Origin: Escherichia coli
GTDB taxonomy: Bacteria > Pseudomonadota > Gammaproteobacteria > Enterobacterales > Enterobacteriaceae
Assembly: GCF_017348835.2 (NCBI RefSeq)
Contig: NZ_CP071375.1
Length of the DNA: 64,000 nt
Strand: one strand, 5' to 3'
Shown: positions 48,593 through 48,769 of the stretch, piece after piece
Position numbering within the stretch: position 1 is the first letter of the stretch
Layout of the letters: every line of letters starts with the position of its first letter
Translations under genes and position numbers: made by a program
The notes under the pieces: generated by a model
Seen by the model: only the letters and a program-made list of their open reading frames with translations
Told to the model about the DNA's origin: nothing
Database searches by the model: none

Positions 48593-48769
48593 GTGATTCA
48601 GATCACAAAGATTCAACAAACCATTAAAACAAAAATGTGACACTACTCACATTTAAATGCCATTTTTAGCGAAAATCGCCGCCTTGTTGCTTTTTTACAC
48701 AAGCGTTTTGTGATGAACGTCACGTCAATTACCTCTCTACCCCCTATATTTATGTGATTGATATCACAC
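48593..48769. promoter_or_regulatory. mtlA upstream regulatory region with four CRP-like sites (TGTGA-N6-TCACA)
   Basis: Read directly: 48593..48608 TGTGATTCAGATCACA; 48637..48652 TGTGACACTACTCACA; 48709..48724 TGTGATGAACGTCACG; 48754..48769 TGTGATTGATATCACA. Confidence 0.7.

Follow-up and report, generated by a model that had tools for sequence, protein, structure and literature searches.

The intergenic region upstream of mtlA in Escherichia coli carries palindromes of the CRP type (TGTGA-N6-TCACA) in close succession, which raises the question of which gene they serve and whether their number or their arrangement is what matters. A sequence-only reading of the 64,000-nucleotide stretch analysed here (the window) had noted four such palindromes, took them for the CRP-dense mtl promoter and offered them as an internal check that the regulatory region is intact.

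The window comes from the E. coli chromosome and has yibH-yibI on one side of a 536-bp intergenic region (48376-48911) and mtlA-mtlD-mtlR on the other. Of 5426 complete E. coli genomes, 5404 contain this region, with identities of 95-100%. The name mtlA for the downstream gene agrees with the RefSeq genome annotation, the NCBIfam scores of mtlA, mtlD and mtlR (Table 1) all exceed the curated cut-offs, and none of the three reading frames contains an internal stop. The products are nearly or fully identical to those of K-12 (MtlR, 195/195 residues; MtlA, 635/637; MtlD, 380/382). The intergenic DNA differs from K-12 MG1655 at 3 of 536 positions (48378, 48412 and 48625), none of which falls in a CRP site or promoter element. 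The window and the K-12 mtlADR operator share the same five CRP-site sequences, the 43/44/73/44 spacing, the core promoter and an identical MtlR; the three SNPs and the two amino acid changes each in MtlA and MtlD are no functional difference between them. The claim of an intact regulatory region holds, and the array works as an internal check, being complete and unbroken with functional elements identical to the K-12 reference.

Some features lie around this locus. The mtlA-mtlD spacer (50826-51054) contains several inverted repeats of the REP/BIME type, for example 50936-50948/50953-50965 and 50984-51001/51008-51025, and its segment 50935-50991 matches naRNA4 (RF02564) with 38 bits, short of the gathering score of 59.5. 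Just upstream of yibH, the genome that matches most closely (L001, 1-3039) encodes a core protein of an RHS element and carries a frameshifted immunity gene of the Imm57 family.

CRP sites and core promoter

All four palindromes are present, although three of them (CRP2, CRP3 and CRP5) have perfect cores where only two had been claimed. They occupy 48592-48768, and the extent of 48593-48769 given previously starts one base off. The sites had been described as lying within 180 bp upstream of mtlA; the CRP2-CRP5 array is indeed 177 bp long, but it is located 144-320 bp from the start codon and ends 143 bp before the mtlA ATG (48912). The interpretation as the CRP-dense mtl promoter was supported, yet it was incomplete, in that it missed a fifth site, CRP1, and omitted the role of the 44-bp spacing. 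The match of CRP1 to the core equals the number given in the literature (PMC13421365). Centre-to-centre distances in the window are 43 bp for CRP1-CRP2, 44 bp for CRP2-CRP3, 73 bp for CRP3-CRP4 and 44 bp for CRP4-CRP5.

Table 1. Positions of the CRP sites, promoter elements and genes in the window (core, TGTGA and TCACA pentamers; bits and ranks of CRP sites from the CRP matrix scan)
Feature	Position	Strand	Remarks
CRP1, CATGCTGTAGATCACA	48549-48564	no strand	centre -262.5; weak, distal; 7/10 core bases; 10.2 bits, rank 13
CRP2, TGTGATTCAGATCACA	48592-48607	no strand	centre -219.5; 0 core mismatches; 19.9 bits, rank 1
CRP3, TGTGACACTACTCACA	48636-48651	no strand	centre -175.5; 0 core mismatches; 14.8 bits, rank 4
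CRP4, TGTGATGAACGTCACG	48709-48724	no strand	centre -102.5; 1 core mismatch; 16.3 bits, rank 3
CRP5, TGTGATTGATATCACA	48753-48768	no strand	centre -58.5, promoter-proximal; 0 core mismatches; 18.3 bits, rank 2
Core promoter (putative hexamers)	48784-48812	+	-35 TGGACA 48784-48789; 17-bp spacer; TGn 48804-48806; weak -10 CAGATT 48807-48812
mtlA 5' UTR, 93 nt	48819-48911	+	start ~48819 (+/-1); Shine-Dalgarno AAGGGG 48899-48904
yibI	48013-48375	-	divergent from mtlA, opposite flank of the intergenic region
mtlA	48912-50825	+	mannitol PTS enzyme IICBA, the regulated gene; NCBIfam NF011663, 1323 bits
mtlD	51055-52203	+	mannitol-1-phosphate 5-dehydrogenase; NCBIfam equivalog, 875 bits; RefSeq annotation
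mtlR	52203-52790	+	repressor that lacks a DNA-binding domain; NCBIfam MltR family, 256 bits

The strength of the sites was assessed with a matrix made from the 16-mers that accompany the CRP ChIP-seq peaks of ETEC H10407 (PMC4287617, Table 1), from which the four 16-mers of the yibI/mtlA region were left out; the remaining 103 were made symmetric. Failure to score with such a matrix had been named in advance as the outcome that would count against the sites. In the scan, CRP2, CRP5, CRP4 and CRP3 took ranks 1-4 among all positions of the window (14.8-19.9 bits, with a training-site median of 13.1 bits), and CRP2 scored higher than 99% of the training sites. Six matches to TGTGA-N6-TCACA with at most one mismatch occur in the window, four of them in this array. 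With up to two mismatches there are 33 in the whole window against 26 expected, a total that is nothing out of the ordinary; what stands out is how strong the four sites are and how closely they cluster, rather than the window-wide number of matches. Outside the mtl operator, the best matrix matches are two overlapping ones at 47810-47831 inside yibH (CGTGATGGGGATCGCT, 12.2 bits; GGGGATCGCTATCACA, 10.3 bits), which are probably without meaning.

In K-12, the five mtl CRP sites have been placed at -262.5, -219.5, -175.5, -102.5 and -58.5 (Lee et al., 2026, NAR, PMC13421365, citing Ramseier & Saier, 1995), counted from an mtlA transcription start that was mapped with S1 (PMC13421365). When the four site centres in the window are aligned to these positions, all of them imply one transcription start, 48819 (+/-1), and the window sites are therefore CRP2-CRP5. 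The proposed comparison with the characterised mtl promoter thus gave agreement, the 44/73/44 spacing being that of the published CRP2-CRP5 positions. Judged by sequence, the four palindromes are genuine, very strong CRP sites that match K-12 sites of identical sequence; the finding is correct, and it concerns a promoter already well characterised. Two E. coli alleles, the most divergent of those examined (~97% identity), carry no indels and no pentamer change in any CRP 16-mer; their polymorphisms within sites all lie in the central N6.

Binding to these sequences has been observed by several approaches. ChIP-seq of CRP in ETEC H10407 revealed two in-vivo peaks in the yibI-mtlA intergenic region (PMC4287617), and the sites called in them coincide exactly with CRP1 and CRP2 for the upstream peak and with CRP4 and CRP5 for the other, CRP1 being listed as its reverse complement TGTGATCTACAGCATG (PMC4287617). 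Genomic SELEX for CRP recovered the yibI-mtlA spacer in 38 clones, second in abundance among the clones selected (PMC3105977). CRP binding to the K-12 operator was also seen by EMSA (PMC13421365). Furthermore, chromosomal replacement of CRP2, CRP4 or CRP5 in K-12 led to the loss of mtl expression and of growth on mannitol, the replacement of CRP3 was mild in its consequences, and CRP1 can be dispensed with and is not occupied in the wild-type operator (PMC13421365). A natural variant fits the reported dispensability of CRP1. In E. coli GPEC1054 (L125, NZ_CM142793.1), an IS21-family element (istA, istB; 461-2768) has entered the yibI-mtlA spacer 16 bp upstream of the CRP2 core, with its junction at ~48575/48576 of the window, and it parts yibI and CRP1 from an intact CRP2-CRP5 array.

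The hexamers of the core promoter were placed from the published transcription start and from near-complete invariance across species, and their assignment is accordingly putative. Among the matches listed, TGGACAG is invariant in 11 species and GTGC-AGATT is invariant save for one position (C or G). A generic sigma-70 consensus scan did not call the mtl promoter, because its -10 matches the consensus at only 3 of 6 positions; such a weak -10 is to be expected where a promoter depends on an activator. Class I activation by CRP has its canonical position at -61.5. CRP5 stands 3 bp from it, as counted from a start for which old S1 mapping is the source.

Between the -35 and -10 hexamers lies a putative half-palindrome of the Cra/FruR type (48791-48806, reverse complement CTGAATCGGTTAA). 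The element is partly conserved across species (ATTC[A/G]GTGC) and would fit the Cra repression reported for mtl. The mtlA 5' UTR is conserved across genera above the level of the promoter spacers (mean majority frequency 0.84). A structured RNA was considered for this leader and rejected, with a fold z of -0.11 and no Rfam match.

The 44-bp spacing and MtlR

MtlR possesses no DNA-binding domain and binds only where two CRP dimers sit on sites 43-46 bp apart, the best distance being 44-45 bp (PMC13421365). It binds fragments that carry CRP1-2, CRP2-3 or CRP4-5, and not CRP3-4 (73 bp); upstream, CRP2-CRP3 is the pair that it prefers as a scaffold (PMC13421365). When a CRP pair of malK was stretched from 34 to 44 bp, MtlR binding was gained (PMC13421365). 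Release from repression takes place at the membrane, where the dephosphorylated IIB domain of MtlA sequesters MtlR and brings about induction, and dephosphorylated HPr, which competes for MtlR, restores repression (PMC13421365). How the upstream sites activate and how MtlR blocks transcription are offered as hypotheses only (PMC13421365). In the window, three pairs fall inside the 43-46 bp range: CRP1-CRP2 (43 bp), CRP2-CRP3 (44 bp) and CRP4-CRP5 (44 bp).

The region is thus almost certainly the operator-promoter of mtlADR, which is CRP-dependent and of Class III and has five cAMP-CRP sites, on whose 44-bp pairs MtlR docks, and no sequence evidence was found that contradicts this explanation. 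When glucose is absent, cAMP-CRP would occupy CRP2, CRP3, CRP4 and CRP5. CRP5, at -58.5, would recruit RNA polymerase in the Class I manner to the weak promoter TGGACA-17 bp-CAGATT, and the upstream CRP sites would be needed as well, probably for architectural reasons, a mode of activation that we infer. In the two 44-bp pairs, CRP2-CRP3 and CRP4-CRP5, the distance would fix the relative orientation of the CRP dimers. An MtlR dimer could then bridge the paired CRP dimers and repress the operon, and such bridging would be possible because 44 bp sets how two DNA-bound CRP dimers are oriented towards each other. During mannitol transport, the dephosphorylated IIB domain of MtlA would draw MtlR to the membrane so that the operon is induced; in the presence of glucose, dephosphorylated HPr would compete for MtlR and bring repression back.

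The key biological feature of the array is the 44-bp spacing that recruits MtlR, and not the density of sites alone. The interest of the locus lies in this exact spacing, which lets a repressor devoid of a DNA-binding domain anchor through CRP; the number of sites matters less.

Other regulatory systems show parts of the same design. In the CytR-CRP complexes of deoP2, cdd, nupG and tsx, a repressor is likewise held between two DNA-bound CRP dimers (parallel drawn in PMC13421365), and in both systems the spacing of tandem CRP sites matters because the repressor contacts both dimers. However, CytR is a member of the LacI family and also binds DNA, whereas MtlR reads only the geometry of the CRP pair. 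The malK-malE region, with four CRP sites, is likewise a Class III promoter in which a dense array has an architectural role; its relevant adjacent sites are 34 bp apart and, unlike those of mtl, do not bind MtlR (PMC13421365). Capture at the membrane by a dephosphorylated PTS permease is shared with Mlc and EIICB(Glc) (parallel drawn in PMC13421365), although Mlc binds its own operators directly and MtlR anchors to DNA through CRP.

The spacing was also followed across species by a pattern scan for pairs of perfect CRP cores whose centres are separated by 34-64 bp, run on a genome collection with one genome per species (100,044 species). Perfect cores were required, and the at least 120 loci obtained are a sample. 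At least 133 pairs of perfect cores were found, 15 of which, among the matches listed, have the 44-bp spacing, and 14 of these 15 stand directly upstream of a homologue of MtlA, in 13 species. Among the matches listed, these mtlA-linked pairs come from several Enterobacter, Citrobacter and Klebsiella, from Superficieibacter, Pluralibacter and Pseudescherichia, and further from Brenneria, an Orbaceae isolate, Actinobacillus and one MAG. By comparison, the 23 pairs listed for Enterobacterales, Pasteurellales and Orbales that are not linked to mtlA are spaced by 41-42 or 49-64 bp, and none lies at 43-46 bp. The difference between mtl and non-mtl pairs in these CRP-using orders gave p = 1.6e-9 for the 43-46 bp range in Fisher's exact test on the matches listed.

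Two candidates from the same scan were discarded. The fifteenth 44-bp pair was not accepted as an mtl-type operator, as it consists of a stretch of 44 bp duplicated exactly in a Bacteroidetes MAG (L089). A second preferred spacing of 46 bp was rejected since 12 of its 15 pairs belong to a 23-bp tandem repeat in one Tannerella MAG. Perfect cores 57 bp apart recur in at least four Enterobacterales genomes (L007, L087, L017 and L099); in Enterobacter sp. Bisph1 (L007, 11663-11735), the pair is situated downstream of atpC, in the convergent gap with a pelX-like gene.

The complete layout is conserved beyond the pairs that led to each locus. In the matrix scan of the matches listed, the (43)/44/73/44 layout was identical in E. 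coli and ten genomes of the Enterobacteriaceae type; other layouts among the matches listed were 44/74/44 in Brenneria, a single 44-bp pair in the Orbaceae isolate and 40/44 in Actinobacillus. This conservation does not stem from the way in which loci were selected, because the perfect pair that triggered the hit differs between species. A MAFFT alignment of 11 species among the matches listed contains no gap columns from CRP2 to the -10; gaps affect 64 of the 80 columns that precede CRP1 and 23 of 103 in the 5' UTR. The core pentamers are conserved and the spacers diverge, with 10-14 invariant columns per inter-site segment. The 44-bp spacing appears to be under selection, as it is kept across species while the sequence of the spacers drifts. 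The architecture of the operator had been examined in four other species (PMC13421365). Added here are 13 more species, the observation that 44-bp pairs of perfect cores mark mtl promoters among the matches listed, and the absence of indels across enterobacterial genera in the block from CRP2 to the promoter, including the 73-bp gap.

Origin of the array and its target gene

Palindromes of this form need not be sites of CRP at all; they could be a chance cluster, the remnant of a repeat or the sites of another regulator of the Crp/Fnr family. Pairs of TGTGA-N6-TCACA were also found in Firmicutes, Bacteroidetes and other phyla, where they reflect other Crp/Fnr-family proteins or tandem repeats, and the AT-rich intergenic region (42% GC against 51% for the whole window) slightly favours such motifs by chance. 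Chance was gauged with 200 dinucleotide-preserving shuffles of the window, in which a cluster was defined as sites of at least 12 bits within 180 bp. The largest cluster was a single site in 168 shuffles and a pair in just one, 31 shuffles had no such site, and no shuffle out of 200 gave more than two; the observed array was reproduced by none. The four sites are not copies of a repeat, because their central N6 and flanks differ, and the conservation of the core pentamers amid diverged spacers also argues against a chance cluster. Moreover, CRP occupies identical sequences in vivo and in vitro (PMC13421365, PMC3105977, PMC4287617). Together, the statistics and the published binding data exclude all three of these readings, whose probability we regard as negligible.

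Granted that the sites belong to CRP, they might still be shared between two genes, with CRP1, CRP2 and perhaps CRP3 mainly serving the divergent yibI-yibH operon from back-to-back CRP-controlled promoters. The ETEC ChIP-seq table indeed assigns the upstream peak, with CRP1 and CRP2, to yibI (PMC4287617). The CRP-binding sequence has a gene downstream on either side, yibI and mtlA, and divergent promoters are often both regulated (PMC3105977); the distance to the yibI start codon is 181.5 bp for CRP1 and 224.5 bp for CRP2. Nevertheless, mutation of CRP2 abolishes mtl expression and growth on mannitol (PMC13421365), which speaks against yibI as the main target. The full array with identical spacing also occurs at loci where YibI is not the upstream neighbour; among the matches listed, YibI is found upstream in only 2 of the 13 other loci, each from another species, and the array therefore belongs to mtlA. 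The DNA upstream of CRP1 cannot be aligned between species, and in E. coli GPEC1054 the IS21-family element separates yibI and CRP1 from the rest; both observations count against a yibI role. A dual role of CRP1 and CRP2 at yibI is possible and would be minor, but it cannot be their main role, and we consider the yibI reading as a whole improbable.

The 73-bp gap

Within the mtlADR operator, the distance between CRP3 and CRP4 (48644-48716) is as constant as that within the pairs. Among the matches listed it is 73 bp in 11 species of the Enterobacteriaceae type and 74 bp in Brenneria, with 12 of the 73 columns invariant in sequence. A distance of 73 bp corresponds to ~7.0 helical turns and places CRP3 and CRP4 on roughly the same face of the DNA. 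The invariance of this gap is a minor point, for which the 2026 MtlR paper offers no explanation (PMC13421365). A possible, if doubtful, account is that the gap is a functional constraint itself, beyond the published models, and that the whole 161-bp CRP2-CRP5 array forms one rigid nucleoprotein structure. If this were true, a wrapped or looped complex would present both MtlR-docking pairs together, instead of two independent pairs.

The gap also contains a T-rich block, GTTGCTTTTTTACAC (48686-48700), in which T7-ACAC is found in 10 of 11 species among the matches listed. With a G, an AT-rich centre and a C, the block looks like a 15-mer of the Fis type, or else like a T-tract that induces a bend; it may be the Fis site reported for the mtl promoter or an intrinsic bend. 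As a sixth CRP site the block was rejected, since its TGT-N9-ACA, recognised by eye, has arms that are one base too close, and no position of the 73-bp gap reached 9.5 bits in the matrix scan. In the spacer between CRP4 and CRP5, which has otherwise diverged, a conserved C-rich block, ACCCCCTAT (48739-48747, ~-80 to -72), was likewise observed, with CCC in 10 of 11 species among the matches listed.
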